From a virus, in IMG/VR virus record IMGVR_UViG_3300045988_176782, positions 32,001 through 96,000 of that record: 64,000 nt of DNA; one strand, given 5' to 3'. Positions within the stretch are counted from its first letter, which is position 1, and every line of letters begins with the position of its first letter. Below are positions 2,754-43,689 of this stretch, in pieces. Below the pieces are notes generated by a model. The model was given only the letters and a program-made list of their open reading frames with translations, ran no database searches and had not been told where the DNA came from. The translations under genes were made by a program, and so were the position numbers.

Positions 2754-4802
2754 ATGGATGAATTAGTTGCAATGATTGAACAATTACTTCAACTTGAAGA
2801 TTCAGTATTTAATGCTTCTCGTGAATTAATTGAAAAACGTATTCTTGAATCTCTTAGCGGCCCAGAAGGTGAGAAAGCAATTCACGCTACTGCGAATGTT
2901 TTCCGTCAAGAAGGATACAGCCGTATGGAAACTGTTCAAGCTTTAGAAACATTAAAAGAGAATTATGCTAATTTATTAGACTCTTTTAAAGGAAAAACCG
3001 AAAGCGAAGAAAAGAAGAAGTTTTTGGACAATCTAAAAGCCTCTTCGGTAGCATATTTTAATGCAGTTCTTCCCGTTTATGAAGCAGAACATCCCACAAT
3101 TTCTATTCAACTTCTGCGAGAAAGTGCAAAAGTCCCAACCTACGCGCATCATGGTGACCAAGGTTGCGATATTTACGCCGTAGAAGATACAATAGTAAAA
3201 CCGCGTACTTATGGTAATTTAATTCACACAGGAATTAAATTAAATATTCCACAAGGATGGGCCGTGGCGATTCGTCCTCGTTCAGGAATGAGTAAAAAAA
3301 CTCCTCTACGCTTGAGCAATTGCGTAGCAACCATAAACTAAAAAGGTTAAAAATAATGGCAAATTATTTACAAGGCTTAGATGATTTTATTCTTCAATAT
3401 TATCAAACTCTAAATACAAAACAAATCGCAGAAGCTTTCTCTTGTGACCCTGGAACAGTAAGAAAACATAAACAAAAATTAGGTATTTCTACTGAGCAGG
3501 AAAGAATTAAAAAATTACGAGAACAAACAGAATATATTTGTTCTCAATATGGAAAAAAGACAAGCACTGTATTAAGTAAAGAATTATCTTGTTCTACTTC
3601 TTTTATCTTTAAGATTTGGACAGAAAATCACTTGAGCGGGTCTATTTCAACAATATATTATTCTGATGAACAGCAATTTGAAACTATAGACACTCCTGAA
3701 AAAGCTTACTGGATTGGCTATATTGCTGCAGATGGTTGTTTATATGATAGACAAGGGCACCAGTCTTTACTTTCTTTATCAGTAGAGCAAACAGACGAAG
3801 AACTACTTCTAAACTTTAAAGAATTTTTACATAGCGAAAAACCCATAAAAACAGTTAAAGACGCTCGCAGAAATACTTATATGAGCTCATTGCAAATTAC
3901 AAGCAATAAAATAGGCAATGACTTAAAAAATATTGGAATTATTCCACAAAAAACTTGGGCAATTGATTTAAATGCAGTATTATCTCATATTCCAAATAAA
4001 TATTTCAGTGCATTTTTATTAGGATATATGGATGGTGATGGCAGTATTACTCGCGTTAATACTTCCAATACAATTTCTAAATGCCGAATCGCTATTGTTG
4101 GTCCAACAAGTTCTATGCAAGTTATTGCAAAGAAACTAACTGAATGGGGCATTGATGCTCATATAAATGAATTAAAAAGAGAGAAATATTCTAACTCTTT
4201 TAGCGAATTAAGTTTAACAAATAGTTCTGAAAAATATTGTTTTTTAAAATTGCTTTATACATACAACATTCCTTGTTTAAAACGAAAACAAGAAAGAGCG
4301 AATGAATTAATGCGAAGAATAAAAGAAAATGTTACTAATCGCGCGGAAAATAAAGAAGCCATTAAAAAGTATCAATCTGTGGTTGTAAAATGGGAAGAAT
4401 TGCTGGAAGCCTGAAATGGTAATCAGCAGCCGAGCCTAAAGCGTCAATAAATAACTTTAGGAAGGTTCAACGACTAACTGGTGAGTTAAGACAAACAATA
4501 ATCCAGACACGAGCATCCCACATCGTAAGATGATGATATAGTCTGAACAATAGAGAATAATAATCTATTGAAGTAAAAATTAAATGTTTTTACGATAACA
4601 TAATTGAGATAGCGGCTATCGCGGAGAAATTTGTGTGCTCTTTGATAATTTTTCTGATGAAGAAATAACAATACATCAAGGAGACCGAATTGCACAATTT
4701 ATTTTAGAAAAATGTTATAATGCTGATTTTGAACAAGTTACTGAAATTGCAGAAGATGAAACCGAACGTGGTTCAGGCGGTTTTGGGAGCTCAGGAAACT
4801 AA
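2754..4802 (+). CDS. dut: dUTPase with N-terminal extension, split by a group I intron: join(2754..3334,4607..4802), 258 aa
   Basis: Exon 1 ends ...YAHHGDQGCDIYA...IRPRSGMSKKTPLRLSNCVATI. Exon 2 reads DSGYRGEICVLF...GDRIAQFI...RGSGGFGSSGN*. Together they restore the dUTPase motifs (RSG, IDxxYRGE, GDRIAQ, RGxGGFGSxG). An in-frame TGA sits directly upstream of exon 2. Confidence 0.8.
3335..4606 (+). mobile_element. group I intron (1,272 nt) carrying a LAGLIDADG endonuclease
   Basis: On the + strand, in order: P AATTGCTGGAAG 4398-4409, Q AATCAGCAGC 4421-4430, R GTTCAACGACTA 4465-4476, S GATGATATAGTC 4532-4543. The 3' end is ...CGATAACATAATTG (omega-G 4606). Boundaries are fixed by dUTPase motif continuity, +-3 nt. 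Confidence 0.8.
3356..4414 (+). CDS. LAGLIDADG homing endonuclease (352 aa), intron-encoded
   Basis: Two LAGLIDADG motifs: YWIGYIAADGC and LLGYMDGDGSI. ATG 3356 follows AAAAGG. The ORF-track start at 3320 (TTG) lies in exon sequence. Confidence 0.85.
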   Translation: MANYLQGLDDFILQYYQTLNTKQIAEAFSCDPGTVRKHKQKLGISTEQERIKKLREQTEYICSQYGKKTSTVLSKELSCSTSFIFKIWTENHLSGSISTIYYSDEQQFETIDTPEKAYWIGYIAADGCLYDRQGHQSLLSLSVEQTDEELLLNFKEFLHSEKPIKTVKDARRNTYMSSLQITSNKIGNDLKNIGIIPQKTWAIDLNAVLSHIPNKYFSAFLLGYMDGDGSITRVNTSNTISKCRIAIVGPTSSMQVIAKKLTEWGIDAHINELKREKYSNSFSELSLTNSSEKYCFLKLLYTYNIPCLKRKQERANELMRRIKENVTNRAENKEAIKKYQSVVVKWEELLEA

Positions 4803-5530
4803 TGGCAATTAATATTTATACCGTCCAAAGCGATGCTATGGCTAATGGTTGGATTGTTTTGGACGAAGAATATAAAAATCTTAAAACCCCTATGAAGTGG
4901 TAGTGTCCGAAAGGGCATATCACTTCATAGACTTATGAAGATTGGAGAAAAAAACATCGGTGCGTAGAATGTGAAGAAGGCGGTTTATTTATTGCAAGAA
5001 ATAAGATTCTCCCACCAACTTCAGGCGTTTATCGTGTTTTATCTCTTGATGCTGCAACAGGAACAACAGGATGGTCAATTTTTGATAATAAGAAATTAAC
5101 TTCTTATGGAACCTTTTCAACAAATTCAGAACATTCAGCGACTGAGCGCATTAATGAAGTTAAAAAATGGTTAGCAAATAATTTAAAAATTTGGCAACCC
5201 AATGGCGTTGGAGTTGAGAATATTTAGTATCAACAACAACGTGGAGTCAAAACTTTTCAAACTTTAGCCAATCTCCAAGGCGTTTTAGTAGATTTTTTAT
5301 ATGAAAATGGATACAACTATTTACTTGCAGGTTCCTCCACTTGGCGCTCATATGTTGGTTTAAATCACGGCGATAAGCGAGAAACTGCAAAACAAGCAAC
5401 TCAAAATTGGATTTTATCACAATACAATATTTCAGCAACTCAAGATGAAGCTGATGCAATAGCGATGGGAGTTTATTTTTCTCATCAATTATATGATAAA
5501 AAGAAAATTACCTGGGGCGAAGAAATTTAA
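4802..5530 (+). CDS. RuvC-like Holliday junction resolvase with N-terminal zinc-ribbon-like segment (242 aa, 3 in-frame TAG)
   Basis: ATG overlaps the dut stop (TAATG). TAG at 4901, 4928 and 5225. VLSLDAATGTTGWSIFD ... GVENI-TAG-YQQQRGV ... QDEADAIAMG is the phage RuvC-type catalytic D/E/D pattern. Stop TAA 5528-5530. Confidence 0.7.
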
Positions 5531-5908
5531 ATGAAGATTACTTTGTATAATTTAATGCAATCAATGCCAATTTTCCAAAAGTTAGTCATCCAACCTTTCC
5601 CAGCTAAACAGGCTTTTTTATTAGCACGTTTAACAAAAAAGTTAGACGAGGAAATGACTAACTTCAATGATTGTCGCCGCGAACTTATTTTAAAGTATGC
5701 ACAAAAAGACGTAAATGGCGAAGCAATTTTTGAGAATGATTCTGTTAAATTAATGGAAGGCAAGGAAGCAGATTTTCAAAAGGAAAGTATTGATTTACTA
5801 AACACTGAAATTGAATTAGCCATTACTCCTATTAAGTTAGATTGGTTAGAAAATGCAACTTTAACTCCTCAAGAAATGGCAACTATTGAACCTTTTATTG
5901 AAGAATAA
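5531..5908 (+). CDS. hypothetical protein (125 aa)
   Basis: ATG immediately after the previous stop. Intact ORF, last gene before the convergent terminator. Confidence 0.55.
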   Translation: MKITLYNLMQSMPIFQKLVIQPFPAKQAFLLARLTKKLDEEMTNFNDCRRELILKYAQKDVNGEAIFENDSVKLMEGKEADFQKESIDLLNTEIELAITPIKLDWLENATLTPQEMATIEPFIEE

Positions 5909-5916
5909 AAAAATAA

Positions 5917-5947
5917 AGAGGGTAGCAGAAATGCTACCCTCTTTTTT
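5917..5947. terminator. bidirectional rho-independent terminator between convergent operons
   Basis: Stem AGAGGGTAGCA / TGCTACCCTCT with a GAAA loop, A-run upstream and T-run downstream. It abuts the stop of the - strand fibre gene (TAA 5946-5948). Confidence 0.75.
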
Positions 5948-8900
5948 ATGCTTCAACTAATTTTACAGTTTTTCCTTTACTTGTGATTGTCCCATCATAA
6001 TATAAGACAAATTCTGCTTGACTTGCATCTTGGCTACCAGCCATTAATACAACATCTTTAGCGTTCTTTGCGGTGCCGTTTAGGCATACATAACCTTCAC
6101 CGCTACCAATGGTTAATTTTCCCGTTAAATGTAAATTACCATTCTAATCAGTGTATAATGTTTTCTATTTACTCGTATTATACATCGCTAAACCATACTA
6201 AGAATTAGCATCAGTAGTTCCAGTGTAATGGCGGCCTAATTGGACTAAACGATTACCAGACTAATCATAGACTTCAAAACCATTTTCACTTGTAATACGA
6301 ACAGAATTATTTTGCGCGCCAATCCTTAATCCATTCCAATCTAAGGAAAGTAATTCTGTTCCCTTTTTCTGGAATAATAAGCCATTCTCATTGAATCTTA
6401 CGAAAGTTGTAGTATCAATATTTAAAGCATTATTAGTAGAGCTAACAGTAGTATCATCGCCAAAGGCATACAAGCCACTTTCATTCCATTGGAAACGAGT
6501 TTGATCACCGCTAAGAATACGAATAAATTTAGTATCAATTTGACCTGCGGTAATAAGCGAGGCGTTAATGCCTTTTGGTGTAATGCCCGTACTCCAAATT
6601 CGTTCGCCTTCTGCGTCAACAGAGTCAGAACAGAAGATGCCACCACCAATTAACTTAATCTAACCATAAACTCCATTGCGATAAGAGCTTTCATTGGTAA
6701 TAATCATACCGCCAGATTTATCTAAGGTAAGAGTGTTATTACCAAATTCAAAGTGCGCATTTGTGTTATCTAAAGTTTGTTGTAGTGTTTCTTGCGCAAT
6801 TTCGCCATTAGAAGTAAATGCCTATGCCGCAATATTATATTGAGTTTGATTTTGCTTCATTGCTTCATTTTGAGCAGAAATTGAAGAAAACAAATCTTCA
6901 AATTTTGTCTTATAATTAGCAATAGTGATTGTATCTTTAGAGGGCTAATCTAATTGATATTTTATGCCAGAAACATAACCACGCTCACGTTCAGCATCAA
7001 TTGTCCAGTCACAAACATAAACAAGTTGGCCAAGTTCAATATGTTCCATTTCGTCAGGAATATTTCCTATTTCAACTTCATAAGAATATTTAGGCTTGGA
7101 ATTATCCTTTGCAACTTGCCGCGCATCCAAATATAGCATCTCATTCGCACGAGAAACCTAATAAATAATATTATAATCAAAATCAAGAATATATTTAATT
7201 AGATTATTGTTTGTAACTTTTAAAGTAATATATGGTCGCCCTTCACGAAGCATAATTTGGTAATCTTCGTATTTAATTAAATCAGGATTATTTTCTACTT
7301 CGCCTTCAGCATTAATAGTATGCGTAGCATTACAATGAACAACTAAATTATCAGAATTATAATTAACATTTCTATAATCTAATTTAACTCGTGGATAAAC
7401 AATAGGATATTGAGTTATGTCATTAGAGGTAATTGTTAATTTTGGGTTATATTGTCGTACTGCTGTTGCGGACGCAGCATAAGATACTTGAGTGTAATTC
7501 TCATAATTAATGTCTGTAGCATTAAGTAATGCAACTGGAATAATATGAGGATTATCTTTATCCTTACTTGTATTTAAGAAAGAGAAAATGAAACCGCCAT
7601 TATTATAAAGACTTCTTACGCCTAAAAATTGTTGTAAGCCTGCAAAACGAGAGGTAATGTCGATTGCCAAAGAAGAAGCTTCCTCTTTAGATAACCATAA
7701 AATAGGTCGTAATGTTGTATTTGTGGGAGTATTATAATATAATAAAACTTTTCTAATATAACCAAAAATAGGAGTATTGTCTACAACGCCAGTATCACCT
7801 GGGTCTAATTTTAAATATAAATGCGAACCTTTAGGCAAAGTATCCGGAAGATTAAAATAGAAGAAATCAGAGTTATAACAAATTCTATATTGCTGAGTTT
7901 TTGTTAATCCAGATTCTTCCGTAATCTCTGCGCTAAATTCAGGATGCTCAAGTTCAATAACAAATTCTTCAACATTATCTAAAGCGTTAGACTGATATAA
8001 TTCTGAAAGATCAATATAAGGGTAATATTTATTTTCGTATTTTACCGCAGTTTCTGTATTAGCAATTACATAATAATTCTTCTATTCGTCCTCAAATAAT
8101 TTATCATCAAAAATATAATAAGTATTTGTTTCAGGATGACTATTCTCTCTTGAAAATACAGTATTAATGCCTTGGCCTGGATCTTCATAATCTTCTGCTT
8201 GCCAATATCCTTCACGAACCGCGGGGCCAAGTAAGCGTTCAAATTGGTAATTTAAATCTTCTTTTTCTTTCTATAATTCTTCACGAGCAAGAGTATTATT
8301 TTGTATCTATTGATTTAAACCGCATTTGGTAATGTTTGGATCTTCGTGGTCAATCTTTTCTTCAAGAAGTTTAATGGCATCTTCTTTTTCCACAATTGTT
8401 GCTTCAAAGCGCGTGCAAATTGCTGCATATTTATTCTTTGGCCAATAAGATAGTTTGAAATACACAATGGCGCCAGTTGAAAAATTATCAAAACCAGTTT
8501 GACTATTCTCTAAAGAAGTATAAACTGTGCTTGGGAAACCATCTTCATCAGTCATAATAAACCAATCATTAGGTAAAGAAGCGGCTTGCCCTGGAGAAGA
8601 TTTTACAAAATAAGGCGCCGGTATATTAGGGTCTGTGCTACCATATTTAAATAAACATTTTTTGCCTTTAGAAGGATTGTGTTCGTAGGCAGAATTGTTA
8701 TAGCATTCAATCGTAGAAGCATCAATACCAGTAACTCTAAATGTACCTTGGTTTATATTTGAAGCTGTTTGTGGAACAAGCGTAACAGAATAAGAGTTAT
8801 GCTCATCTTTTACAACGGGCTGTTTATAAGTATCATTATCGCGTAAAGTTTGATAATTGCCTAATTGCTCTTGTGCGCTTGCTAATTCCGCTTTTGCAGT

Positions 8901-10346
8901 AGCCAATTCTGCTTGAGTGTCATTTAAGGAAATAGTTAAATCATTATAATCTTGCTCTAATTTAATATACGCGCGATTGATGATATTTAACTATGTTTTA
9001 TAAGTATGTTCAATCCAATCATATTGTTCATCAGTGACTGAACCAATAGAATGAAGATAATCAAAGTTAAGAATAAATTCATCCAGTAAAGGATTACTTG
9101 GTGTATCCGCAATACTAACATAACCAGTATCAGAAATTTCAGACTGTAAAGGAGTTACATACAATTTCGTATAAATTTCACTGCTATCAATAGTGCGGCT
9201 AATAGACTGCAAATTATGTTGATAATTAATCGTATATGGGTCATCAGTTTTAATCGCGCGATTATAAAATACAACTCGTTTGCCTGTCCAAACGCGGCCA
9301 ATCTCATCCCAATAGGTGCCACGAAAATAGCCGTGGTCATCTACTTCATACTCATAAGTACAAAATACGCCAAAAGCTTCTGCAATGTCTTGGGTAATAT
9401 TATATTTATTGCTATTAGAACAATTTACATAACGCGCTTTTTCTTCAAAAGAGGTTACTTTTGTGGGTACTAATTGTTCATATAAAACTTTGTCATTTTT
9501 ATCTTTTACTGGCCAAGTAATCCAATTGGTAACATAAGCATCTTCGTAAATAGTTTCTTCATCACGAATTTGATACAACTATCTACTTGAGCCAGAATTA
9601 ATAACTAACCAATTTTTATCCTTATTATTTAATGTTTCTGCCGCGCCGCGTGCATTATAAAAACTACATCCATCTAATTGTGCGGCCATACCACCGTCAA
9701 TAAGGAAGTCACTTACATCCTAAAAATAACCGCGCCAGTCCATACGGATTTCATAACTCCAAGGAGTAAGCCAACGAATGACATTACCAGCTTCATCGCG
9801 GATATTCGGAAACACTTTATCTAGCCAATAATTAATATTGGCGACAGTATCACTATCTTTAGCAAAATCAATTTCTAATGTGTCTGCGGTTAGTTCAAGT
9901 TTATAACCAATTTTACCCAATTCGGCAAAAGCCAATCCATTACCAGTGACTTCTTTATAAACTCCAAAACTATTATCACGCCGATTTACAATTTTATCAA
10001 TAATGAAAGGAAAAACTTTTGTAATATAACCATCTTCAACAGAATCATCAGCGAATTGAATACTAACTTTTAATACTCGTGTATTTTCTGCTAATATTCC
10101 AGTTTCAATGTCTTTCCATCTTGGATTAGTAATTCGTTCATTAGGAACTTCACTAATGAAATATTTTGGAATTTTTAATGTTAAGGTCTGCGTTCCATCA
10201 TCCTTTATCTCCATCGCCGGTTCTACGACTTGACCCAAATAGTGGTCGTCATAGGACTACAAGTTTCCGATAAAATTGTCTTGTAGTCCATAGACGTCAA
10301 TCTTATATGGGCGGGATTTTTGAGATAGATTAAATTTAACGCTCAA
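5946..10346 (-). CDS. tail fibre / tail-associated (Tal-like) host-recognition protein, 1,466 aa, 15 in-frame TAG
   Basis: Single frame from TTG 10346 (6 nt after GGAGGG, with an in-frame TAA directly upstream) to TAA 5946-5948. I walked every gap between the ORF-track pieces and found only TAG, never TAA/TGA. It is the last gene of the tail module, after Dit. Confidence 0.7.
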
Positions 10347-10368
10347 TTAAATCCCTCCAATACTCTTT

Positions 10369-12057: not shown

Positions 12058-15000
12058 TTACCTCCGAGAAACACTGCGACTTGAGGATTTCGCAGCAATA
12101 GAATACATACGGTCCATAATGTCATTGGAGATGTCTTCAATGTCATAAGAATCGTTAAGCTTCGCGACGGAGATTTGAATGGCTCCATCGGAAATGTTGA
12201 TAGAGTTAGAGTTTGAAGTTGTATAATTTTGAGAAGCAAGATTACCAGCAAAAGAATCGTAATGAGCTTTTAAGACATTTACAAAGTCAGGATTCTTTTG
12301 AGTAAAGGCAACAAGTTGTTCTAAGCCGCGAGTCTGATTAGCATTTAAGATATATTCAGGATTTTGGGGAGTGCCATGTAACATTGCTAATCCAGTTTCA
12401 GAATTCATACCACCTGTAGAATATCCACGAATTTTTTTCTATATAGAATTAATACGTGCTCTACCTACAGTAGTTTTTTTATCATCAGCTTTAGCAGACG
12501 TTCTTGTGCCAGTCCCATTTTTAGTAAGTCCCTCTGCTGCTAATTTCTTGGCATCTGCATAAGAAACTGTAACTGTTTCACCAGAAATCATCGTTACTTT
12601 ACGATTAGAACCAGAGCCAAAAGAAGACTTACTAGAAGAGCTACTTCCACCAGAAGATCCACTAGAACTTCCACTACCAGAACTATTATTAGTCTAATTC
12701 TTTGCTTTCTCATTATCCTCGCGACGTTTCTTTTCTTGAGCAATATGTTCAAAGAAACTTTGTTCCGCTAAACGAGAAGCCTCTTTCTAAGCCGCAGCAA
12801 TCTATTCATCAGAACTTTGACCATTAATGTTCTTAAGCATATAAGAATTATAAGTGTCTAAGTAATCTCTATCCCACCCCATGCGGGTTGCGGCATCAAC
12901 GGAATCATAAACATTCTTATAGCCTTCTTTCCACTTAGAAGCGTCACTTGTGTTACCCTTTAATGTTTCAAAAGCAGGTTCAGCATACTTATTAGAAAGC
13001 ATAGTAGAACGTTCGTTTTCACTATATAAGCCAATCTTGAATGCCCATTCTTCTAGCATTTTCTTTTGTTCTAAGTTTGCTTTTTCTAAGAAACTATCCG
13101 CGCCAGCACCACTTAAGAAATCAAGCATAAAGGCGTTACCCTAATCCATGATTTCATAAACCTTAGTCCATAATATGCCATTTTCTTTTTCGTAATCTAA
13201 AGTATCTTGAAGTAATTGGACTTGCTGTTCCATTAGTTCAGTTTGCTTAGTATTGGCATCCTTAATAACCTCAAGCGCATCTTCTTGCTTTTGGAAGTAT
13301 TCGTCTTTTAGCTTTTCACTAATAGTTTTTTCTAAGTTCTAAATCTCACTTGCACTACCGCCACTACGACGAAGTAGAGAAAGTTGTCGTTGTAAGGTTT
13401 CCCGTTCAGCAATGTTTTGATTAGTAGAATATTGATTCTTTTCTTTCGTGATTGCATTTTGAATTGAATCAGCGTATGCTTTGTTCGCGTCGGTAATAAG
13501 TTTATTGGATTCTTTTAAATCTTTAATGACTTTTTCCTTAACTTGAACAATTGCATCATAAATCATTTGGCTAACTTCAATTTCATTATCACGAATTTCA
13601 TCATTAACTTTTTGAATTTCTTCTGCTAAGCTTTCTAATTTTTCCTCTGTCTCTTGTACAGAATCACGAAGACCATCATAATCATCAATTGGTTCTTGCA
13701 AAGCACTAAAGAATTCTTGAACATACTCTTCATCTGTCCATTCTTTCTTAGTGTATTCGCCATTACCAACTGTTTTACCGTTTTCATCTTCGGTTTGACC
13801 TTCTTCCCAAGTGAAGCCGCGTTTAAATTGACCATTAGTTACTTTCTCAATCCAAGCAACCTAATCTTTAATGGTATAGCGTTCAGGATTATCGCCCATA
13901 TCATTAAGTTCTTGTAAAACTTCAAGGGCGCCTTTACCACCATTAGTCTCATTGCCTTCAACATATTGTAATACGCCATCTGCGCCAACTTTATAGAACT
14001 TGCTAATCCAGTTGGAAGAATCATTAATTGCGTCAGCTTGACGCTTTAATTCATCTTGTTGATAACGGTACAAATCACGTTGAGTATTGAGTTGGTCTTC
14101 AAGTAAAGCTTGACTTTCTTTTAGATTGCGGAGATAAGCGGCACCTTGGTCAAAACCTTTAGAGAGATTATTGCGTTGCGCAACAAGAGTATTGATGCGA
14201 TTCTCAAGATCAACAATTTGTCTTGAAAGGTTATACCATTCTTGTAAATCTGCAATATAAGGTTTGAGGCTGGCGTTCTTTCCACTACCGCCACCTCCAC
14301 CTCCCCCGTCGCCACCAAGCATATCGGCAGCAGATAGAGAGTTAAGTAGATTTGTCCAAATTGATTTTGCACGACGAACTGCAGCAAGAGCAGAACCAAT
14401 ACCACCAGCATAAGCATTACCTTCAACAAGAGCATTTCCACTATACATTGAAGCACGTTTATAGGCAGCATTAAGTTGAGTGCCACGAATTTTATCAACC
14501 TTTCCATCAATAATACCTTGAGTTTGAAGATGATTAAAAACGATTGCATCAGAAGGCAGATTTACAAATTCTGCGCCATCTTCGCCAAGTAGATGATATT
14601 TATTATCATAAACTGCTAACTCCGGGCCAAGTTCGCCAACAAGAGTTTTACCTGCCAAAGCAGCACCATAAATTTGACCATTTACAAGAGCTTTACCATC
14701 TACATTGCCTGTATAATATGGCAAGTCGACATTTAAACCTGCACCACTCGGTGCAAGAGGCTTCCCACCAGTTTTTTTAACACTAACTGTGCCAGTGAAA
14801 CTGGTATTTACACTTTTAGGAATTTCAGCAATGATTTTTTTAACTCGTTCTACAACTGAAATTATATTCCCTACTATACCACTAAAAGAAGTCTCATGAC
14901 TTGAAGGAACAGATTCAACAGAACTAGTAATATCTTTTGCAGTTTTATCTACATTTTCATCTTTTGCAGAAAAAGTGGTTTCTACTGTAGCGTTTTCTGC

Positions 15001-18000
15001 ACTCATATTTCCAAGTAAGAACTACAAAGCAGAAGAAATTAAATCAATACCATTAATTGTAAAGTTAACGTTGATGTCTTTATTTTTTCCTGCAATAGCG
15101 TCTAACTCACCTGCGACCTTATCTAACTTACTTTCTGCTATTCCAGCATTAGAAGCAATTGTAGCAATTGAAGCTGCGACAACAGCTAAGCCTAAAGCAG
15201 AAGTAGAAATAGTAGATAATGCAGTAGAAATTGCATTTAAAGGCTCAGCATCTAAATTAGAAAAATCTAATTTAAAAGCGTCGCCAGACATTAGGTCAGA
15301 AATGGACTGTAGAGTGGCAACAATTTTATTTAGACTGACTTCAACAGAATCAAAAACAGTATAAGTAACATTACCAGTATCAGAAATAGTTATTGGCTTT
15401 CCTAAGTCCTTAGTAAGCTAATCTTCTGCTTCCTTCCTTAATTCATCAGAAAGAGGAGCGCCATTGGGACCTTCAACCTTAAGCTATCCTTCTTCTACAG
15501 TAAGTGTAATTGTACCAAAAGGAGGCGGGATAGTTTCGTCAGTACCAGTACCAGTTATATCAGCAATTTTTCTTTCTATTTTTGTGCCAATTCTATAAGT
15601 TACTGTTTCTTCACCGACATCTACAATATAAGATTGGTCAGATTCTAAAGAAGCGCCATAAACGGAATTAAGATAATCTTCTATGGTTGCACGATTGCTC
15701 TTATCTTTATTAATATAATCAACTAAATTTTCTCCTGTTAATTCATTGCCTTTATCGTCAACTAATATTAAACCACCAGGAGTTAATTTAATTTGTCTAT
15801 CAACGGTAGCCTCGCCATCTTTTAGCTTAATATTACTAATAGCTTTTCCGCCAGCTTCTGAAAGCATTTTAGAATACTATTCAAAATTGGCTTGTTGATC
15901 TAACAGCTTGGCAAATTTTGTAGGATCGCCAAATAAATCTAAGAAAAACTACTGTGCCTTAGCGGGATCTGTGAAGATAGCTTTGCCATCTTTAAATTCC
16001 CATTCAAGACCGGCTTTGCGCATGTCAGAAGCAAGTAAATCAAGCATTCCTTGAATGCCTTCCGCACCTAAATCTGACATTGTAACAAAGAAATCACTAC
16101 CAATTAAAAACTTCTCTGGATTAAATTTGCCGTCTGTGAAGAACATTGATTCAAAAAATTTATCTTCATCAAAACCAAAGTTCTAACCAAAAGTATTTAA
16201 TCTGTTAGCAATATCTGTTAAACCAGCATTACCTTTATCCCAAGCTACTCCTAAAACAAACTATAGTTCTTTTTTAACATCTTCATTGTCTTTGTTGGCA
16301 TTCCAGAAATCAACTAAATCACGGTAAGTTTCAATTGTCTCGCCTTTTCCATCCCCATCAACATCAATTCCGATGCCTAAGTTAAGCTTAACATCACCAA
16401 TATCTTCCAGTGATTGCATGGCAAGAAGCATTTGTTCTATACCATTTAAATAATCAATTTGTTGTTTAGCAACCTCTTTTAGGCCATCAGTCATTCCGGT
16501 TGCCATAGAAGATGCCGCGGCGCTAATATCAATCCCAACATCAACGAAGCCTTTTGCGTCAACTTTACCAATAGTCTCACTGGCAGCAACGACCTTATTG
16601 GCCCAATCTTGAATAGTCTGTCCAGATTTAAGCCATTCATCCTATCCAACATTACTTAAGAAAGAACCTGCTTGACCTAATCTATCAATTTGGTCAATAA
16701 TATTATAAAAATCCTTAACTCCCATTTCACCGCTTTTTGCAAAGCTTTGAAGGGAGCTCTTAAAGGTATCAATGTTATCAACTAATTGCGTCCAATGTTC
16801 TTGTTGTCTATTTGCAAATGGGTCTTGGCCCATAAAATCAAATTCAGCACTATCAGCAGATTCTTTCGCTGCGGATGCAGCAGCTTGAAGAGCCTGAGCA
16901 TAGCTCCACGCTTCTTGCGCTGCTTCACCAGTAGCGTCTCCCATAGCTTGAGCAGCGGCAAACGCTTCTTTTGCTGCATCTTCGGCATCTTGATAACTCT
17001 TATATAAAGGATTGTCAGAATCTTGCCACAAATTCCATAGTTCTTGGCCAAACTCGCCAACACCAGTTAAGCCAAAAGTATCTTGAACTTGGCGGCTCAT
17101 TTTTGCAATTAAAGCCTGTTGATTTTGAGAACCTAAAGTAATACCTTTGTAAGAAGAAATATTACCACGAGAATTTAATCCATATTGTTTTGCTAAAGAA
17201 AAGAATTCAGAATTAGTTAATTCACCAGAAATGCCTTTTCCTAATGCGTCAAGATTAGAAGAAAGAGAGTCACGAATAGCATCTAAGATAAGTTGAATAA
17301 TTTCAGTATATTTTTCTTGAACAATAGAAGCATCAATTGTACCAGCAGATACCGCTAAATCCATCTAACCTACAAGATAATTTAAAATACTTTCCAAACT
17401 ACCAGAAGTTAAAGTTGCGATTGCTTCCTGAGTTTGACGTAAGCCCATCTTATCTAATAAGCTTTGAGCATCACTTACACTCATCTTTTCGCCAGAAGCA
17501 GCTTGTTCTAAAGCAGAACTTACAGAAGACATATAATCTTCCGTTGCAGCTTGAACGGAAATCTTGGCTTGTTCAATTATTCTCTCACTATATGCTTGCG
17601 CGCCAGCAACATCACTAATACTGGATAGATTTTCTTCAAGTTTTCCAACATTTAGACGATACTTGCCATCTTCGCCAAGTTGTAAAGCATTATGATAATA
17701 TTGGCTAACTTTTTCACCAAAGGTAAGATAAATGTCTGCTAAAGCATCAACTAAGTCAGAAGCAGAGATACCTTCTGCACTTGTTGAAAGTTTTTCATAA
17801 GCAGAATCTAAACCTTCAATTTGGTCAGTAGTATATTCTTTAGCAATATCAGAAAAGCCTTCACCAAACTAATTAACTATCCCATCATAATCTAATGCAC
17901 GCTTAAATGCAGCAGAAGCAGTAGATTTAGCATCAGAATAAGAAATATCATGATCTGTAAGAGCTTCACGTGTTTTGGTTAATAATGAATTTACCGCGCC

Positions 18001-25396: not shown

Positions 25397-29813
<4,417 letters not shown>

Positions 29814-31072: not shown

Positions 31073-32532
31073 TTAAGCCTCCTACCATAAAGCATAAATA
31101 TCAATTGATTTAGTGTAAGATTGACCATTATATTCTGTAGAAAGAATAACTTTGCCAAGTTTATTACGTTCATTTGCTTTGACAATACATTTATTGCCTT
31201 GATTCTGTATAGAAGCAAGAACTGTATTATCAATAACAAAATCTGTTTCAACTGCACCAATATCTGGCATAACTAATTCATAGGAAGCAGAGCGTCCCAT
31301 CCGAATAAAATTGTCGCCGTTGATATAACCAATCGGCGCGGCACCACCAATGATAACTTTAAGCGTAAGCATTAAGTTTTCATAAGTAAGCAATAATTCA
31401 GTTTCGCCCGCTTCAGTGGCAATTAATTCACCATTTTCATTGTATGATATTTTTTCACTTGGAACTAAAGTTGCTTTAAGGTCTTTTTGAATAACGCCAT
31501 TTTTTAATAAAGTATAAATAGGATTAATAATTTCTCCTACTTCTACTGATAATTGTAATGGAGCATTAATACTCCAAACTTGCAATTTATCAATATTAGC
31601 AATTTGTTCTTGTACGCTATCTCGCAATTCATTTACTTTACTTTCAGTAAAAGATAAGTAAATTGTGCCTGGAACAGATACACGGTCATATTCAATTAGT
31701 TCCCAAGCTTCATCATATAAAATGATTTCTGTTGATTTTTCAATTGGTTGATAAGGCATCAATACTTCCATAAACTTATTTGGCTGGGGCGTAATAAGCT
31801 CGTTCCACAATAGACTATATCTTCATCCATTTCTGGAGGCCACCACTTCGGCATTTGCCTACTCCTTTACGGATAGTCGTTGAACTTTACCTTTCGGTCT
31901 TAGCTGCTGATTGTTTATTTTCATCTGGCTTTTAGGATTACTCCATAAGCTATCTTTTCTTTTTTTTCTGCTTTCGCGGCATTCGCATTTAAGCCAAAAT
32001 GGCTTTCTGTTGTAGCAAGAAAAGCATTAAAATTTCCAGCAATTCAATGGCATTTTACTTAACCATTACTGGTTAAGGGACCTGGAACTTGTCAAGTCCT
32101 ATAATTCCCCTTAAGTTTGCTGTCTTTGGTCCCTACGATGTAGGCCGCGGACGAATGTAAATTACCTTTTGTATCAACCCAATTTATAATGTAATTACAC
32201 TAAACCATATAAAATTTATTGTGAGGCTGATAAGCAGACACAACTTTTTTATATATAAGCCAAGGTTTTTCGTTCCAAATTACTAAATCACCGGGTTTCA
32301 AATCCACCGATAACTCAGTTAATAAAATTTGAGAAACACGATTTTCATCCTATTTATCAGTCAAAATAACTCCATCAAAATAGTTATCCTCACATCGCAA
32401 TCCCCTGACTGTTGCTTGATTATAATATAAATTCTTTTTAAACTCTAACTAACCAGACTTAAAAGCCCGTTCTTGCGGAGTTACTCCTAAATGAGTTGCG
32501 CGCTAACGATAGACTTCAAAATATTCACTCAT
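31073..32532 (-). CDS. structural protein with C-terminal Ig-like (Big_2-type) domains, join(32532..32095,31807..31073), 390 aa
   Basis: ATG 32532 follows AAGGAG. Exon 1 has 4 TAG. The junction is ...GNYRT|WNELITPQPNKF. The C-terminal half (LQLSVEVGEIINP...GELIATEAGETELLLTYENLMLTLKVI) looks Big_2-like. One more TAG at 31082, then TAA 31073-75. Confidence 0.6.
31808..32094 (-). mobile_element. group I intron, ORF-less, 287 nt
   Basis: P GAATTGCTGGAAAT, Q CAATCAGCAGC, R AGTTCAACGACTAT, S GATGAAGATATAGTCTA. P1 pairs exon AGGACU with GGUCC (U-G at the site), and P2 is CTTAACC/GGTTAAG. The 3' site is only ~4 nt after S, so it is less certain. Confidence 0.7.
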
Positions 32533-34803: not shown

Positions 34804-34822
34804 AATCTTATACCTCCAACTA

Positions 34823-35362: not shown

Positions 35363-35378
35363 AATAAATTCCCTCCAA

Positions 35379-36677: not shown

Positions 36678-36691
36678 TTTGATTCACCCCA

Positions 36692-38248: not shown

Positions 38249-41200
38249 CTGCCTTCTTTTTACTTGATGAGAAGAATGTCATTGCGCCAACACCAGTTCG
38301 TTTTTTGTTGCGACGGGTTTCTTTATCTTCGTATTCTTTAATGCGATAAAGTCCATAGGCTAGAGCAGAAACACGGTCTTTGTTTATACGTCTAGAAATC
38401 TATTCTACTGCTAACTGGTTAGCAGCGCCAGTGGGACGCAATTTTAGGTTATTAATCTCATCTATAAGTCGCGAGGTCATTATGTATGGTAAGAGGAATT
38501 TTTCTCTCTAATATAAATTCATTCGTTGGCCTTTTTTGGTTGATAGTAATTTTTCACGTGCGATTCTTTCATTGGCTAAAAGCAAAACATTTCCACTGTT
38601 CATTTGGATATAAAAGTTAGAATATATTTCGTTGTTAAGGGCAGCGTTGGCTTTTATGTTGTAGATTTTTGCCTCAACTCCACGAGGATGGGGATAAGTG
38701 TCGGGGTCATTAGAAACATAAAGTGCGCCGTATTGTTGCCCTTTAGGGCCAATGGAGGGAATAACAAGTTGGTCAAGTAGACCAGTACCGATAGTGTTTG
38801 CGTCAATTACGATGTCGCGAGGATTAAAGAGCTCGTTAAGTTCTTTAATGCGTGCGGCTTGTTCGGGGAAGGACATTTTTGTTAGATTTTCAGTATAAAC
38901 TACTTTCTTCGTCCAACCGTCTTGAGAAGGCAGGACTTTTATAATCATTACAGAAGTATCATTATTTCCTGTACGTGCTACGTCTCATTATTATTTCGGT
39001 AAGGTCGCTACGCTTACCGCATGGAGCTTTACATCTCTGTAAAGATTAGACTATATTTTCATCTATGATAGATGTTTCTTCTTTCGGGCGGCAATCGCTT
39101 CCGTCCTACTCCACATTGGGATAGTCGTTGAACCAATTTTCTAATATTTGTTCTATTTTACGAAAATTTGTATATGAAATTATTAAATAATTATAACCTT
39201 GCTGTTTAGCTTCTCGTTCTTTTAAAATATCTCGTTCTTGGCGTTCAGCCAAAGGTAATTTAGATTCAAATTTGACAAACTCTTTGTAATGTTGCTCTCC
39301 ATGGTATTCTATAATTAAATTATATTCAGGTATATAAAAATCATATCTATATCGTGGATTAGATTGCCATTTAAAAGTTGCTTCTTTTTGGAAAGAAATT
39401 TTTTGCGAATCTAAGTAATCTACAATTTTCTTTTCGCCATGACTCATTTTATCTGAGCATCTTGGACAACCAGCATGGCCTGATAGCAAAGCGTGAGGAG
39501 AAATTTTTCTAATAAAACCACATTTATGTCTCATTAGAATTTTTGTATCCGTGCCTTGATATTCTTCTAAAGGTTCGTAGTCTTGTGGAATTAAAGAGCG
39601 AAATACAACATCATTCATATCATGATGAGATTCACAAAAAGGACAAGTTTGGGTTTTTAAATAATCTTGTTTGCTTTTTTCAAAGATTTGATTACATTTT
39701 TCACACAGGACTTTTACAGTTTCCTTTTGTGTGTGTTCGCGGTATCCCCAATCTATAAAAGTTTGATTGGGATTATTATTAATTAATTGTAAAATTTTTT
39801 CTTTATTTTGTTTTTGTATGGCTTTATAAGCCGTCCTGCCTAAGCACTCGCAAATTGCTTGTCCATTCCTAATAAAATTATAAAAAGAAGAGTAAGTTCG
39901 TCTTTCTCCACAAGTTAAGCATTTAATTGTAAAAGGCTTACTAACTTTAGTATATTCAATAATTTCATAAGGTTGATTAGGGAATTTATTATTAATTCTT
40001 TGTTTAATTTCATCAATGATAATAATTTTCATAAATAGAATACCTCCAAAATTGGTGCTGATTGCCCTTTTGTAGCATTTAGGTTTACACCATGTGCCTT
40101 TTTGTTATTTGTTTCTGCTTTCGCGGCGTCATTATATTGAGGTAGATATAATTAGCATAACAAAACTTTCGGGGTTCCCAGCTTTTAAAGAAATTTTAGC
40201 ATCTCTTGTCACCAAGAGAGTCGGCAGAATTTTACCGAAATGATATAGAACATTTTTGGATTGCTTGAGGATTTAGCTTTTCTTTCAGCGTTAAGAAGCT
40301 TACGGATTTTGATAAGACGGTTAGAATTAAACCAGCTATCAGAATTACTACCTGTCCAAATTGACTGCGATTCCTTTATTTTTTTTCATATAAATTCGCT
40401 ATATTTATATCTGTTTTTACAGCTTATATTTTCATATAAGATAAGACTATATCTTCACCCTAAAATATTTAGGGGTTCGGCGTTAGAGCGCTTGCTCATT
40501 TAGTCGTTGAGCTAATAAGTCAGAATTTAATAATGTTTCATCATTATATGGTATTTTAATTAAAATAATATCATTATTTTTACAGTATTCAGCTTTATCT
40601 TTATCACATTGTTGCTGTTTAAGAAAAGCTTGCTCACCACCAAACCATTTAACAGGTTGGTAATGCTGGATGCCATTATATTCAATAGCATATTTCTTAT
40701 TGCTTTTTTCTAAATAGAAATCAAAGCGTAATACACGATGCTCACCACAAGGAATGATTTTTTGTTCTTCAAAAATAAAATTATATTTTTGTAAATATTC
40801 TCGTACTTTTCGTTCCCCTTTACTTGCCCTACAACGAGGGCATCCAGTGCGTTCCTTTAGAAAATGATAACAATCTACTTCCCAAATAAAACCACATTGG
40901 TTATGACGTACTTTAAAACGTCTTTGATGTTTAGAATTATGAGTGGTAGGTGCAACTCGGGTGTATTCATTGCCCCATGTTTGTTCAATACGATAATCAA
41001 TCATTTCATCGTTTAATAAAGCAAAGTTAGCTTCGCACCAAGGGCATTTTGTTCCTTCTTCTGTATAAGATACAGCAAAGGGCGCCCGAGAAAATGTATG
41101 CCCACATTTTCTACATTGCCAGTCTATTTTTTCTTTCCATGACCAACGGATGTCTTCAATTGCGAAATCTAATGGAATTAAAGAACTATTTTTAATAATT

Positions 41201-42517
41201 TCCATTCGTTGCTTTTGCAAGCCAGTTCTGCCAGCAGTTTCACATTTATTACAAATATCTAAATTACCACGTTTAGCCCGCTTCTTAAAATTACTGGCCA
41301 CTTTAAAAGTGAAATGAGAACCACATTTATTACAAACAATTTCACATGGATTTTCTGTACCATTAAAAGTTACAAAATCAAAATCAGATGTGGGTAAAGC
41401 TTCTTGTAAAATATCATGATATTCTTGTTGAGTATATTTCATATTAAATCCTCCTTATTAGTTGCTGATTGCCCATTAGCAAGCCCTTAGCGTTGCCGCT
41501 TAGGCTCATCCAAAAACTTATTTCTGCTTTCGCTCCGTCATAATTTAAGGTAAATTATTGTGGCATTTTGGCTTTAGGGGTTTCCAGCAGTTAACCGAAT
41601 TCTATAACTATATTACTATAGTTTCGCGCAAATCTACGTGCAAAGCTGTCCATATCAAAAGTCGCGCTCATTCGCTGTTCATTAAGAAACTTCTTATTAA
41701 GCAAACCATAATGCACAGGTAACTCATATGAACTGCCACAGACAAAATAATCGTCTGGGTCAATTACTTCATTAACTACTAGTTCAATTAATTTTTCATA
41801 AGCAAAGGTAGTTTTGCTACCCGCACTAGTAATATAAATTTGTTGGGCGTGAGGTTCGTCCGCATTCACGAAACCATTTACTTGAGGCCTAGGTACATTC
41901 ATCATGGGGATTATTACCTCATTCAGCAAAGTCCCATCTATCAAGGCAGCTTCCTCAACTACGCCACCCGTTGCACGCTAGCCACGACTTGAAGCAGAAA
42001 GAGCAAGAACGTGGAAAATGGAACCATTCTTAAATTTCATTTCAATATAATCGGTGCTTTGCTTTAAATATTCAAGCTCGTTTTTAAGTAGCGGCCACCA
42101 ACGAAAGATTTCTTCTATTTTTTGTTTTGCAATATCCAAAGATGCTTTTTTGTATTGAGAAACCAAAAAGCGCTTACTATTGGGTAGAAATATGCAAGAC
42201 AAGATTTGAGAGAGTATAGCAATGAAAGACTTTGAAGTTGCGCGTGTGAATGACCCGAAGAAGTATCTGTATCGCGCGCACGCTCGCAACATAACCCTCT
42301 GATAATACATTAATTTAATTGGACAATCGCGGCTTGAAATCATATCTAAAAAAAGGTCAGGGTAAAGCCGCCACTTCTCACAATAATATTGGATTAGGTC
42401 TTCATTCTATTCTACCCATCGTTCATCAAGCACAACACCTTTTTCTACTGGTATGCCGTCTCGTAGAACATTACCATTAACACGGAAGCTGTCAATTGGA
42501 TTAGTTAATTGCGTCAT
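38241..42517 (-). CDS. terL: terminase large subunit, join(42517..41636,40373..40234,38985..38241), 588 aa, 4 in-frame TAG
   Basis: GSFTRATSKSF (Walker A-like) ... SSRG-TAG-RATGGVVEEAALI (Walker B region) ... DSFAR|ESQSIWTGSNSDSWF ... KMFYIISV|DVARTGNNDTSVMIIKV (nuclease domain). Junctions obey U(-1)/omega-G. P1 of the downstream intron is perfect (UUCGGU pairs with GCCGA). Confidence 0.8.
38986..40233 (-). mobile_element. group I intron with zinc-ribbon/Vsr-like endonuclease (TerL intron 2)
   Basis: P AAAAGCTGGGAACCCC, Q CAATCAGCACC, R GGTTCAACGACTAT, S GATGAAAATATAGTCTAA. P2 is CTCTTG/CAAGAG. The intron ends ...AAATAATAATG. Confidence 0.8.
39046..40032 (-). CDS. intron-encoded endonuclease: multiple CxxC zinc ribbons plus C-terminal Vsr/DUF559-like PD-(D/E)XK domain (328 aa, 1 TAG)
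   Basis: CLTCGE...CEC, CEKC...CPFC and CPRC pairs, then YRYDFYIPEYNLIIEYHGEQHY (the D...E-x-x-G-x-Q-H pattern of Vsr-like nucleases). TAG at 39106. The ORF ends ...DENIV* inside the S element. Confidence 0.7.
40374..41635 (-). mobile_element. group I intron with zinc-ribbon/Vsr-like endonuclease (TerL intron 1)
   Basis: P TTAACTGCTGGAAACCCC, Q CAATCAGCAAC, R AGCTCAACGACTAA, S GGTGAAGATATAGTCTTA. P2 is AACTATA/TATAGTT. The 5' site after ...GCACGU is supported by protein continuity (FAR|ESQSIW). Confidence 0.75.
40483..41442 (-). CDS. intron-encoded endonuclease, paralogue of 39046-40032 (319 aa)
   Basis: Same architecture: CNKCGS...CNKC, CRKCGH...CPWC, CPRC, then LRFDFYLEKSNKKYAIEYNGIQHY. 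RBS AAGGAGG. Confidence 0.7.
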   Translation of the reverse strand: MKYTQQEYHDILQEALPTSDFDFVTFNGTENPCEIVCNKCGSHFTFKVASNFKKRAKRGNLDICNKCETAGRTGLQKQRMEIIKNSSLIPLDFAIEDIRWSWKEKIDWQCRKCGHTFSRAPFAVSYTEEGTKCPWCEANFALLNDEMIDYRIEQTWGNEYTRVAPTTHNSKHQRRFKVRHNQCGFIWEVDCYHFLKERTGCPRCRASKGERKVREYLQKYNFIFEEQKIIPCGEHRVLRFDFYLEKSNKKYAIEYNGIQHYQPVKWFGGEQAFLKQQQCDKDKAEYCKNNDIILIKIPYNDETLLNSDLLAQRLNEQAL

Positions 42518-43689
42518 CGTCATCATCCTCCAGGTCCATAGTATCTTCATATTCTATGGAACGAAGAGTTTCTTCTTCGGTGTCGGTATCTTCGTAGCTG
42601 CCGGTTTGTTCTAAGCGGTCAGCCAATTCAAGTTGCTTGCGGCGGTCTTCAACCTAATCGCCAATGCTACTTTCATTTTGCACCAAACGCTTAAGATGGT
42701 CTTGGATACATTTTATAGTAAAGTCTGCACTATCTTGCGGCTCAGTATGCCAATTCATCTTTTTGCCGCGTTTCTCCAAGTAAGTGAATAATTCACCTAC
42801 ACTGTCAAAATCGCCGGTTGATTTGCTGTTTTTCGGTTCAAAACCTTCAGCTTTGATAATATTATGATACATCATAAAATTTAAAAGAGTTCGCTAAGCT
42901 CTTCCCATGGGGCTGCATATTACTATGCAGATTAGACTATATCATCACCTTGCGGTGTTTCCCGTTTCAGCCCGCTTGGGCTTACGCCTTTCGGCTAGTC
43001 GTTGAACGTCCCTTATAAAAATAAGGTTTCGCTGCTGATTGACCATTGTTGTATGGTGTTCCCAGCAATTAGAGAAATTTTACATGGACGTGTATCAGTT
43101 CATCCATTTCTTTTTTAGCGTCTTGACCACTACGGATTTTCTTATTAATTAAGAGTCCGACCTCGCACAGTCTCTTGGCATCGTCGCGCTAAGTTGCTGT
43201 TACAAGGTTTTGCGTAGCAAGTAAATCATTATATAAATCTTCCAAATAATGATAATCTTCAACTGTTCTTTCAATTTCGGCGGGCCATTTTCGTTGCATT
43301 CTTAGCATAAAGGCTTCATCTGCGCCATCTAAAAAGTCGCCTAATGTTCCAAAACTTTCCTCTTCCTTCCACTTCTCATTCATTGTTTCCCAATCAACAG
43401 ATTGGTAAGTTGGATTTTCACTAATTTGTTTGGCGTAAAGGTGAAGTGTGCGCTCTTTTCCGGAGCGTGCTAACTTCGTCCAAAGCTCCACACTAAATGG
43501 CCAGTCAAGCCACTACATCAACTTATTAACTGCGGCCAGGTCATCGTATGGAACCATACGCTCCAAACAATCAGTACAAAAGAGGCTTGTGCCCGCGACT
43601 TGGAAGGGGCTTTTGGTTTTTAGATATTCGGTTTGGGTTTTTTCTATCTTGCATTTTGGGCAGCGTCTTGTTTTTTCTATTCCTGCCAT
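42501..43689 (-). CDS. putative small terminase / packaging protein with N-terminal zinc ribbon, join(43689..43102,42872..42501), 319 aa
   Basis: ATG 43689 follows GGAGG. RRCPKCK...CTDC, TAG at 43513, 43189 and 42654, acidic tail ...EDTMDLEDDDDDAIN*. It overlaps the TerL start. The TerS role is inferred from position only. Confidence 0.5.
42873..43101 (-). mobile_element. group I intron, ORF-less, 229 nt
   Basis: P TAATTGCTGGGAACAC, Q CAATCAGCAGCG, R CGTTCAACGACTAG, S GGTGATGATATAGTCTAA. P1 is perfect over 6 bp: exon AUGGAU pairs with GUCCAU (U-G at the site). The intron ends ...AATTTTATG. Confidence 0.8.

Follow-up and report, generated by a model that had tools for sequence, protein, structure and literature searches.

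Eleven group I introns in six genes of a putative SPbeta-like phage that most likely reads TAG as glutamine

A stretch of 64,000 nucleotides (nt) from an uncultured virus (IMG/VR record IMGVR_UViG_3300045988_176782, positions 32,001 to 96,000; hereafter the window, to which all coordinates refer unless another locus is named) contains eleven group I introns, I1 to I11, that interrupt six genes. The dUTPase gene, a YonG-like packaging gene, a gene for a structural protein of 390 amino acids (aa) and the tape measure gene carry one intron each, the TerL gene carries two, and the tail tube gene five. The introns are 229-1272 nt long and add up to 8,179 nt, or 21% of the region 3335-43101. The explanation that we favour, with a probability of about 0.9, is that the window belongs to an SPbeta-like siphophage that reads TAG as glutamine and has been heavily colonised by eleven mobile, self-splicing introns of subgroup IA, six of them with homing endonucleases. 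It is carried by group membership in sequence and structure, exact boundaries, restored reading frames, and polymorphism among close relatives, both in the presence or absence of introns and in the open reading frames (ORFs) that they contain.

Introns and their exact junctions

Conserved core elements were scanned with at most one mismatch each in the R element GTTCAACGACTA and the S element AAGATATAGTC, and both occur together at exactly 11 sites in the window, one on the plus strand and ten on the minus strand; at looser thresholds the observed counts were reached by none of 100 shuffles. At each of the 11 sites P and Q lie upstream of R and S in canonical order (divergent P elements are found in I2, AATTGACGGGG, and I9, AAAAGCTGGGAA), the introns show the expected complementarity of P with Q (helix P4) and of R with S (helix P7), and R and S together have 22 columns that are invariant over the 11 introns. 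The Rfam covariance model Intron_gpI (RF00028; gathering score 50 bits) covers every site, five of them above the gathering score (56-94 bits) and the other six at 29-50 bits (E 1e-9 to 5e-4 in a reduced search space). Run on 21.9-43.3 kb only, it matched all ten minus-strand sites, including the one at 39.1 kb (E 2.6e-4), and permissive filters gave five further RF00028 matches. A family-specific covariance model built from uninterrupted R-to-S halves (model R1) found exactly these 11 introns in the window and nothing else, and RF00028 had no match on the control L001, an intron-less and likewise TAG-recoded relative on a 158.8-kb contig. A candidate twelfth intron at 27481-27739 (RF00028, E 0.23) was rejected: this match covers the 5' half of I4, an intron with its 3' half at 26.7 kb.

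A sequence-only reading of the window had proposed eleven such introns, one on the plus and ten on the minus strand, with P, Q, R and S in canonical order; the motif scan and both models bear this out, and the RF00028 search that it had put forward as a check matched 11 of 11 sites. Its outer boundaries (start of I1 at 3335, end of I11 at 43101) were reproduced, and so was its division into six introns with endonuclease ORFs and five without (229, 248, 287, 320 and 337 nt). Its span of 45 kb has to be corrected to the measured 39.8 kb, and its statement on shared 3' ends holds for six introns (ACATAA(n)nG in I1, I2, I5 and I7, AAAAATG in I3 and I4) and not for the other five, which differ.

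Junctions (Table 1) were set by uninterrupted homologues: an alignment of tube proteins (A1), an alignment of YonG proteins (A2), the proteins of L001, and the Pfam dUTPase family. Rfam alignments were not used for boundaries because they spuriously overrun the 5' ends of I6 and I11 and enter the exons. Placements made by reading frame alone (I7 after ...NAT, I3 at ...KVTA|, I11 at GGACT|, and the reading QEKSAHRLANYVEHNES for the exon between I6 and I5) were overturned by homologue alignment. All exon analysis was done with TAG as glutamine (code 15); the exons are properly readable only with TAG as a sense codon, a point absent from the sequence-only reading.

Once spliced, all six genes are open and free of internal TAA and TGA codons, and each is colinear with its uninterrupted homologues; that reading had likewise claimed continuous, motif-complete proteins. 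A single Pfam dUTPase match spans the I1 junction, and the spliced dUTPase has 258 aa and the C-terminus RGSGGFGSSGN. Proteins of L001 bridge four introns colinearly: I10 and I9 (TerL), I8 (the 390-aa gene; L001 residues 151|152 are contiguous over the junction) and I2 (residues 686|688). The last of these lies in the tape measure gene, whose exons 24427..22364 and 22026..12058 on the minus strand give an open spliced frame of 4,010 aa. The spliced TerL (588 aa, the length of TerL in the close relative L004) aligns in one piece to TerL of cultured phages, and the spliced YonG-like protein has the 319 aa of its uninterrupted counterpart. The tail tube gene (Pfam YomU_Tube, PF27173; 2,890 homologues) is divided into exons of 30, 147, 25, 471, 133 and 67 nt: of a locus of 4,417 nt, five introns make up 3,544 nt (80%), and the coding sequence 873 nt. 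Homologues read GGWG|NPKLVTWD|YGKD through the 25-nt exon, and the same layout is present in an independent assembly, L011.

Table 1. Introns, intron ORFs and the internal tube exon. A vertical bar in a protein sequence marks the splice junction; A1 and A2 are the alignments named in the text.
Feature	Position	Strand	Length	Gene or protein family	Junction or content	Model and domain matches
I1	3335..4606	+	1272 nt	dUTPase gene (exons 2754-3334 + 4607-4802)	VATI|DSGYRGE	RF00028 at 4327-4570, 49.6 bits
I1 ORF	3356..4414	+	352 aa	LAGLIDADG		Pfam LAGLIDADG_3 5e-11; phrog_4645 'endonuclease' 3e-41
I2	22027..22363	-	337 nt	tape measure gene	TRESP|ENIGSALK; no ORF	RF00028 65.5 bits
I3	25464..26498	-	1035 nt	tail tube gene	GDPST|FSMTLNV (A1)	RF00028 on 3' half
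I3 ORF	25603..26322	-	239 aa	GIY-YIG + NUMOD1	in P6 loop	NUMOD1 5e-11; SegE_GIY-YIG weak; phrog_314 8e-23
I4	26632..27749	-	1118 nt	tail tube gene	FPGTY|KVVGDAL (A1)	RF00028 on both halves
I4 ORF	26742..27668	-	about 297 aa from ATG at 27635	GIY-YIG + NUMOD1		NUMOD1 1e-16; phrog_314 2e-25
I5	28221..28468	-	248 nt	tail tube gene	TWD|YGKDINV (A1); no ORF	RF00028 71.9 bits
Internal exon	28469..28493	-	25 nt	tail tube gene, between I6 and I5	AAUCCUAAAUUGGUCACUUGGGACU; encodes NPKLVTWD plus 1 nt	
I6	28494..28813	-	320 nt	tail tube gene	GGWG|NPKLV (A1); no ORF	RF00028 78.5 bits
I7	28961..29783	-	823 nt	tail tube gene	FERYG|IKEVANV (A1)	RF00028 on 3' half
I7 ORF	29013..29612	-	199 aa	HNH_3 + NUMOD4 + NUMOD1		Pfam; phrog_59 9e-40
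I8	31808..32094	-	287 nt	390-aa structural gene (32532..32095 + 31807..31073)	NYRT|WNELITPQ; no ORF	RF00028 56.1 bits
I9	38986..40233	-	1248 nt	TerL gene	FYIISV|DVARTG	RF00028 30.3 bits, E 2.6e-4; model R1 55.7 bits
I9 ORF	39106..40032	-	308 aa	zinc-ribbon/DUF723 + VSR-like nuclease		phrog_559 2e-47; Pfam DUF723
I10	40374..41635	-	1262 nt	TerL gene	DSFAR|ESQSIWTG	RF00028 43.2 bits
I10 ORF	40483..41442	-	319 aa	zinc-ribbon + VSR-like nuclease, same family as I9 ORF		phrog_559 1e-50
I11	42873..43101	-	229 nt	YonG-like gene (43689..43102 + 42872..42501)	KKEMD|MYHNIIKAEG in homologues (A2); no ORF, no P2	RF00028 93.6 bits

Ribozyme fold and 5' splice sites

The Rfam alignments contain the canonical P3, P4, P5, P6, P8 and P9 pairings, and the five that were displayed have an insertion of 22-34 nt between P7 and P3' (P7.1/P7.2). 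Such an insertion is a hallmark of subgroup IA, the home of the classical phage introns, and by this feature the introns fit subgroup IA (IA2/IA3-like, the phage type). At the junctions set by homologues, the last base of the intron is G in all 11 (the omega G), and ten have U at position -1 opposite the guide G. Pairing of P1 and P3 was assessed by an own-versus-cross partner test, which took the place of unconstrained single-helix shuffle tests: guides pair over 5.6 bp with their own exon and over 3.8 bp with the other exons (p about 1.5e-4), and P3 strands, of which the 3' one lies 0-4 nt before P8, over 5.9 bp with their own partner and 3.5 bp in cross pairs, the observed mean being reached in 0 of 20,000 permutations. 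For P8 the outcome of this test is biased by construction, and it is not used as evidence. The minimum free energy fold of I11 (229 nt; z = -3.5) contains P1, P4/P5, P6, P7 enclosing P7.1, P7.2 and P8, and then P9 and P9.1. In I1 the guide is GUGGUU (intron nt ~1045), which forms its helix with AACCAU of the exon and places U.G at -1; I8 ends only 5 nt after S.

The 11 introns belong to a single structural family without being recent copies of one another, their 3' halves being 42-71% identical. Local mosaics (I3 and I6, 87% identity over 119 nt; I5 and I7, 75% over 131 nt; I4 and I10, 88% over 59 nt) suggest recombination between introns. A hairpin near the 3' end of I2, I3, I6, I9, I10 and I11 (minus strand, 22040-22062, 25478-25496, 28505-28527, 38997-39021, 40387-40409 and 42886-42904) has the same loop, (A/C/U)UAGCGA(A/U/C), perhaps a motif for tertiary contacts that is conserved in P9.x.

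The P1 of I3 is a perfect 7-bp helix (CUUCCAC/GUGGAAG, 26494-26506 (-)), in which the splice follows C, as placed by colinearity with homologues and by the empty site of the relative L002. I3-like introns in L015 (11235-11355) and L016 (10580-10700) keep both the exon end and the guide, in exons that are about 70% identical. At the 3' junction the three copies have G|N-TTY with a variable N; C(-1) with omega-G therefore fits, and a junction with G(-1) and omega-A was rejected, as it needs a non-G 3' terminus in two of the three homologous copies. By these comparisons the I3 lineage is a conserved natural exception, C(-1)-G, to the U.G rule at a predicted splice site. Because engineering of the Anabaena intron has found that Y is tolerated at -1 opposite the guide G (PMC12355055), splicing of I3 with C at -1 is plausible.

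Several points weigh against taking these elements for working mobile introns. Splicing is read from DNA and predicted structure, not from RNA, and the activity of the endonucleases, like the mobilisation of the ORF-less introns, is predicted in the same way. In the six ORF-containing introns the core is split by the ORF, which puts their scores under the Rfam gathering threshold. Single-helix shuffle tests of P1 and P3 were non-significant by themselves, with p often above 0.1, and automated search gives alternative P1 registers for several introns. The best P1 of I10 pairs four of five exon-side positions and has an uninterrupted helix of 3 bp in a stricter scan, and I3 has C-G, not the near-universal U.G wobble, at -1.

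One explanation that would build on such points is that the introns are decayed, non-splicing relics, and that a defective phage or the remnant of a prophage carries the interrupted genes as pseudogenes. It could cite that splicing is predicted from sequence, the C at -1 of I3 and the weak P1 of I10, the loss of ORFs from five introns, and the loss from I8 of everything after P7; we nevertheless regard it as extremely unlikely. The exons are open and conserved, including those of a gene of 4,010 codons, the catalytic core motifs are invariant over 11 introns, and P1 and P3 covary with their own partners. The same introns are kept in several diverged genomes of about 140-170 kb, the C(-1)/guide pair of I3 is conserved at about 70% exon identity, and decay would mean that six essential genes are dead at once.

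Under the favoured explanation, of working introns, each would be transcribed as part of its host gene and would fold to the canonical ribozyme, with P1 formed by the last exon bases and the internal guide, followed by P3-P9 with P7.1/P7.2. A guanosine-initiated two-step transesterification would then excise it, restoring intact dUTPase, YonG-like protein, TerL, 390-aa structural protein, tail tube and tape measure.

Empty sites, endonucleases and mobility

Relatives supply natural empty sites for six of the introns. L004, an 8.1-kb gut contig 94-97% identical to the window in DNA, is colinear with it save for gaps at 43102|42872, ~41640|40373 and ~40245|38985, and the spliced window equals L004 base for base at the junctions of I11, I10 and I9. 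In L002, which has a tube protein 95% identical to that of the window, the sequence continues without interruption at the sites of I5 (TTGGGACT|ATGGTAAGG), I4 and I3 (AGCAC|ATTC), and an I6-like 3' end stands ahead of the same 25-nt exon. Two IMG/VR siblings that are about 95% identical to the window, L008 and L011, differ from it in turn: L008 lacks I4, has an ORF-less I7 and carries a larger intron with GIY-YIG-like similarity at the I6 site, and L011 lacks I3 and has an ORF-less I4. In both siblings I8 has, relative to the window (31808-31812 (-)), 766 extra nt at its 3' end (L008:5482-6247; L011:6383-7148), probably a P9 region with an ORF that was lost from the window copy. Presence and absence of introns, and forms with and without an ORF (I4, I7, I8), thus occur at the same sites among relatives, as is the mark of mobile introns.

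A distinct group I intron that encodes an HNH protein lies at MQA|EGDPST, 17 nt upstream of the I3 site (L002:690-1490; also in L008 and L018-L021). In every locus examined that has this intron, I3 is absent, as if the two excluded each other at neighbouring sites.

The coexistence of strains with differing intron sets (L002, L004, L008, L011), and the identical 11-12-mers that the intron cores share, could be taken to mean that repeated cores had led the assembly to stitch the introns of several strains into one chimeric contig. Exact shared repeats are short, however, and the 3' halves of the introns are only 42-71% identical. With exons of just 25 nt and 30 nt, a single read or k-mer must take in the introns on either side. 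The reading frame is kept at every exon-intron junction, and I8, I7, I6, I5 and I4 are contiguous at 95% identity in L011, an independent IMG/VR assembly, which argues against a chimeric contig; we consider this artefact very unlikely.

The six intron ORFs belong to four recognised homing endonuclease families. Those of I3, I4, I7, I9 and I10 lie between Q and R, in the P6 loop, and abut or overlap R. The ORF of I1 overlaps the guide sequence, P3 and P4, and since the guide follows the ORF, the LAGLIDADG gene occupies the P1 loop. The ORF of I4 has one in-frame TAG inside its catalytic domain and is continuous only if TAG is a sense codon, and that of I7 has one before its DNA-binding motif GKRKTAGGYVWKY, which is reached only by read-through. 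Four of the six endonuclease ORFs lack an internal TAG; the ORF of I9 stops at TAG, or 20 codons later if this is read through. The family phrog_559 has been described as VSR-type and found in TerL introns of Bastillevirinae (PMC11878797), and a PDB sequence search with the I10 endonuclease returned spurious zinc-ribbon matches only. In mixed infections these endonucleases (LAGLIDADG, two GIY-YIG, HNH and two VSR-like) would cut the intron-less alleles of siblings, after which recombinational repair would copy the intron into the sibling allele; the five ORF-less introns may be ORF-loss derivatives, or may be served by endonucleases in trans.

Within 15 nt upstream of the intron, exon mismatches to the empty allele number five at I10 and seven at I9, where about one is expected, and no such cluster lies upstream of the ORF-less I11. 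In this small sample the clusters are what co-conversion or target-site divergence would give. At the I10 site itself, the intron allele (41636-41644 (-)) encodes Arg as CGU, giving U at -1, and the empty allele (L004:4127-4135) has AGA at this codon.

Whether the introns serve the phage is a question of function only, and an answer in the affirmative would be compatible with the favoured explanation. On such an account the endonucleases would cut essential late genes of co-infecting relatives, or splicing and TAG-gated translation of endonucleases would time late genes, or both. The introns are located in essential packaging and virion genes, mismatches cluster upstream of ORF-bearing I10 and I9 and not of ORF-less I11, the ORFs of I4 and I7 need TAG suppression for full length, in agreement with the late gating put forward for an intron endonuclease of Agate phages (10.1101/2021.08.26.457843), and many sibling strains with different intron sets co-occur. 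Neutral selfish homing, however, predicts all of these observations equally, and four of the six endonuclease ORFs have no TAG to gate them, so that we hold a benefit to be possible and rather doubtful.

An elaborate form of this account, in which the introns together serve this recoded lineage, and it alone, as both weapon and timer, seems to us improbable as a whole. Endonucleases directed at the late genes of intron-less siblings would be released only after the switch to TAG as glutamine, since those of I4 and I7 cannot be completed without TAG read-through, and homing and the exclusion of competitors would both be gated by this switch of genetic code. The tube gene, with five introns and a 25-nt exon, would need ordered splicing or could give exon-skipped products, and the C(-1)-G 5' splice site of the I3 lineage would, in addition, be a natural exception to the U.G rule.

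Phage lineage and comparison with known systems

Read-through of TAG yields ORFs of 9,972, 4,401 and 2,085 nt, and read-through of TGA gives no such gain; genes with TAG as sense include 24427..12058 (-) and 10346..5946 (-). At positions aligned between the window and a relative, the codon opposite TAG is mostly CAA or CAG, whichever of the two has the TAG, and CAG is underrepresented; for this reason TAG is most likely read as glutamine in this phage. The tape measure gene has 48 in-frame TAGs and the tube, MCP and dUTPase genes none. No suppressor tRNA was found within the window, where the sole tRNAs are Leu-CAA, Lys-UUU and Ile-UAU at 56.7-57.2 kb. Neighbouring genes match the Pfam families YonD, YonB, YomW, YomV, YomU and YonG, and TerL matches those of Geobacillus E3 (42%), Enterococcus phages, phAss-1 (35% identity) and Brevibacillus Sundance; together, these point to an uncultured, large siphovirus that is SPbeta-like and infects Firmicutes as the source of the window, the probable host being a gut Firmicute. 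When bacterial genomes were scanned with the tube gene, the only matches were 32%-identical, on ~183 kb contigs in metagenome-assembled genome bins of Ruminococcus or Oscillospiraceae, and they were set aside as too weak to name a host. Megablast against deposited phages found no close relative.

Relatives lie on contigs of about 160-175 kb. Among 30 related loci scanned with model R1 (hits in L023 duplicate those of L018), nine distinct relatives have 4-7 introns per 20 kb, three other loci have one intron and the rest none, so that heavy infestation characterises a sub-lineage. The tape measure protein has 4,010 aa here and 6,441 aa in the gene call for L001, and a tape measure gene of this giant size implies, from its predicted length, an exceptionally long tail. 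Two further ORFs were judged by eye. The one at 697-1794 (+), with six in-frame TAGs, is a candidate free-standing endonuclease: a transmembrane/coiled-coil part lies towards its N-terminus, and a motif resembling GIY-YIG (GIYKITN...YIGRS...REKYYI) towards its C-terminus; the one at 4760-5530 (+), just downstream of the dUTPase gene, has three in-frame TAGs, a zinc-ribbon-like N-terminus and a RuvC-like resolvase C-terminus (...QDEADAIAMG...). In L004, outside the part alignable to the window, there is a twister-P1 ribozyme match (112-164 (-)), which at 53 bits (E 2.7e-9) falls short of the gathering score, 67.2.

Phage T4 carries introns of subgroup IA2 in td, nrdB and nrdD (sunY), with the endonucleases I-TevI/II/III (reviewed in PMC3984707): three introns in 169 kb, all in genes of nucleotide metabolism. 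The window shares with T4 the ribozyme class, the core motifs, P7.1/P7.2, insertion in conserved sites of protein-coding genes, and endonuclease ORFs looped from the core, mostly in P6; its GIY-YIG endonucleases (phrog_314) are related to I-TevI. Unlike T4, it has 11 introns in 40 kb, ten of them in packaging and virion genes, a TAG-recoded code, and one ORF in the P1 loop. Staphylococcus phage Twort (listed with the Twortvirinae in PMC11878797) has three group I introns in orf142 and so, like the window, several in one gene; the window differs in having five introns in a coding sequence of 873 nt, a 25-nt internal exon, and a locus that is 80% intron.

In the Bastillevirinae (Bacillus Herelleviridae) the reported maximum is six introns in a genome, located in the genes for DNA polymerase, TerL, thymidylate synthase and RNR (PMC11878797); the density in the window is far above this. 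Like the window they combine subgroup-IA-like introns with Firmicute hosts (probable for the window), TerL is split there by up to three introns, and the endonuclease families phrog_559, phrog_59 (HNH) and phrog_314 (GIY-YIG) are shared; unlike the window, they have none reported in tube or tape measure genes, and no recoding (PMC11878797). The phAss-1/'Phassvirus' group of gut phages, the closest TAG-recoded siphophages so far described, with genomes of about 136 kb and predicted Clostridia hosts, resembles the window in reading TAG as glutamine, in its giant tape measure genes and, distantly, in its TerL; introns are unreported there, and the word 'intron' is absent from the paper (PMC10607447). 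For Agate phages a recoded intron endonuclease has been noted (10.1101/2021.08.26.457843).

High intron numbers have also been published for two groups of gut phages. Crass-like phages of the Zeta and Delta groups (crAss-like; 145-192 kb, with alternative codes) have up to 14 introns and three inteins per genome, a density called 'unprecedented', with an MCP gene in five fragments and recoded stops inside intron ORFs; the introns were recognised through protein domains (PMC7886860). These are podovirus-like Crassvirales of Bacteroidetes (PMC7886860), whereas the window appears to come from an SPbeta-like siphovirus with a tape measure; no inteins were found in the window, and its local density is higher, at one intron per 3.6 kb over the span. 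Jug jumbo phages have 18.5 group I introns per genome on average, of about 206 nt, and for 37 of 76 introns splicing is backed by metatranscriptome reads (PMC12880540). They are like the window in their many short introns, in a split terL (two or three fragments there) and in their endonucleases (HNH, PD-(D/E)xK, GIY-YIG, LAGLIDADG), and unlike it in being Bacteroides phages of 360-402 kb with the standard code and roughly one intron per 20 kb (PMC12880540).

Measured against these systems, the claim of the sequence-only reading that the density exceeds that of T4, SPO1 and Twort stands, and its suggestion of novelty is overstated: the window is an extreme, very dense case of a phenomenon already published for crAss-like Zeta and Jug phages. 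It extends intron-infested gut phages from Bacteroidetes Crassvirales and Jug phages to unrelated SPbeta-like recoded siphophages, which probably infect Firmicutes, and its sibling population captures a cycle of invasion, ORF loss and intron loss at single sites. The set offers compact natural ribozymes (229-337 nt) and a conserved C(-1) variant of the splice site. Such genomes are badly mis-annotated unless recoding and splicing are both modelled; truncated 'tube' and 'YonG' fragments of these phages are already in public protein databases (P0001, P0128). Five introns in the 873-nt coding sequence of the tube gene surpass the densest arrangement in a single phage gene that we found reported.

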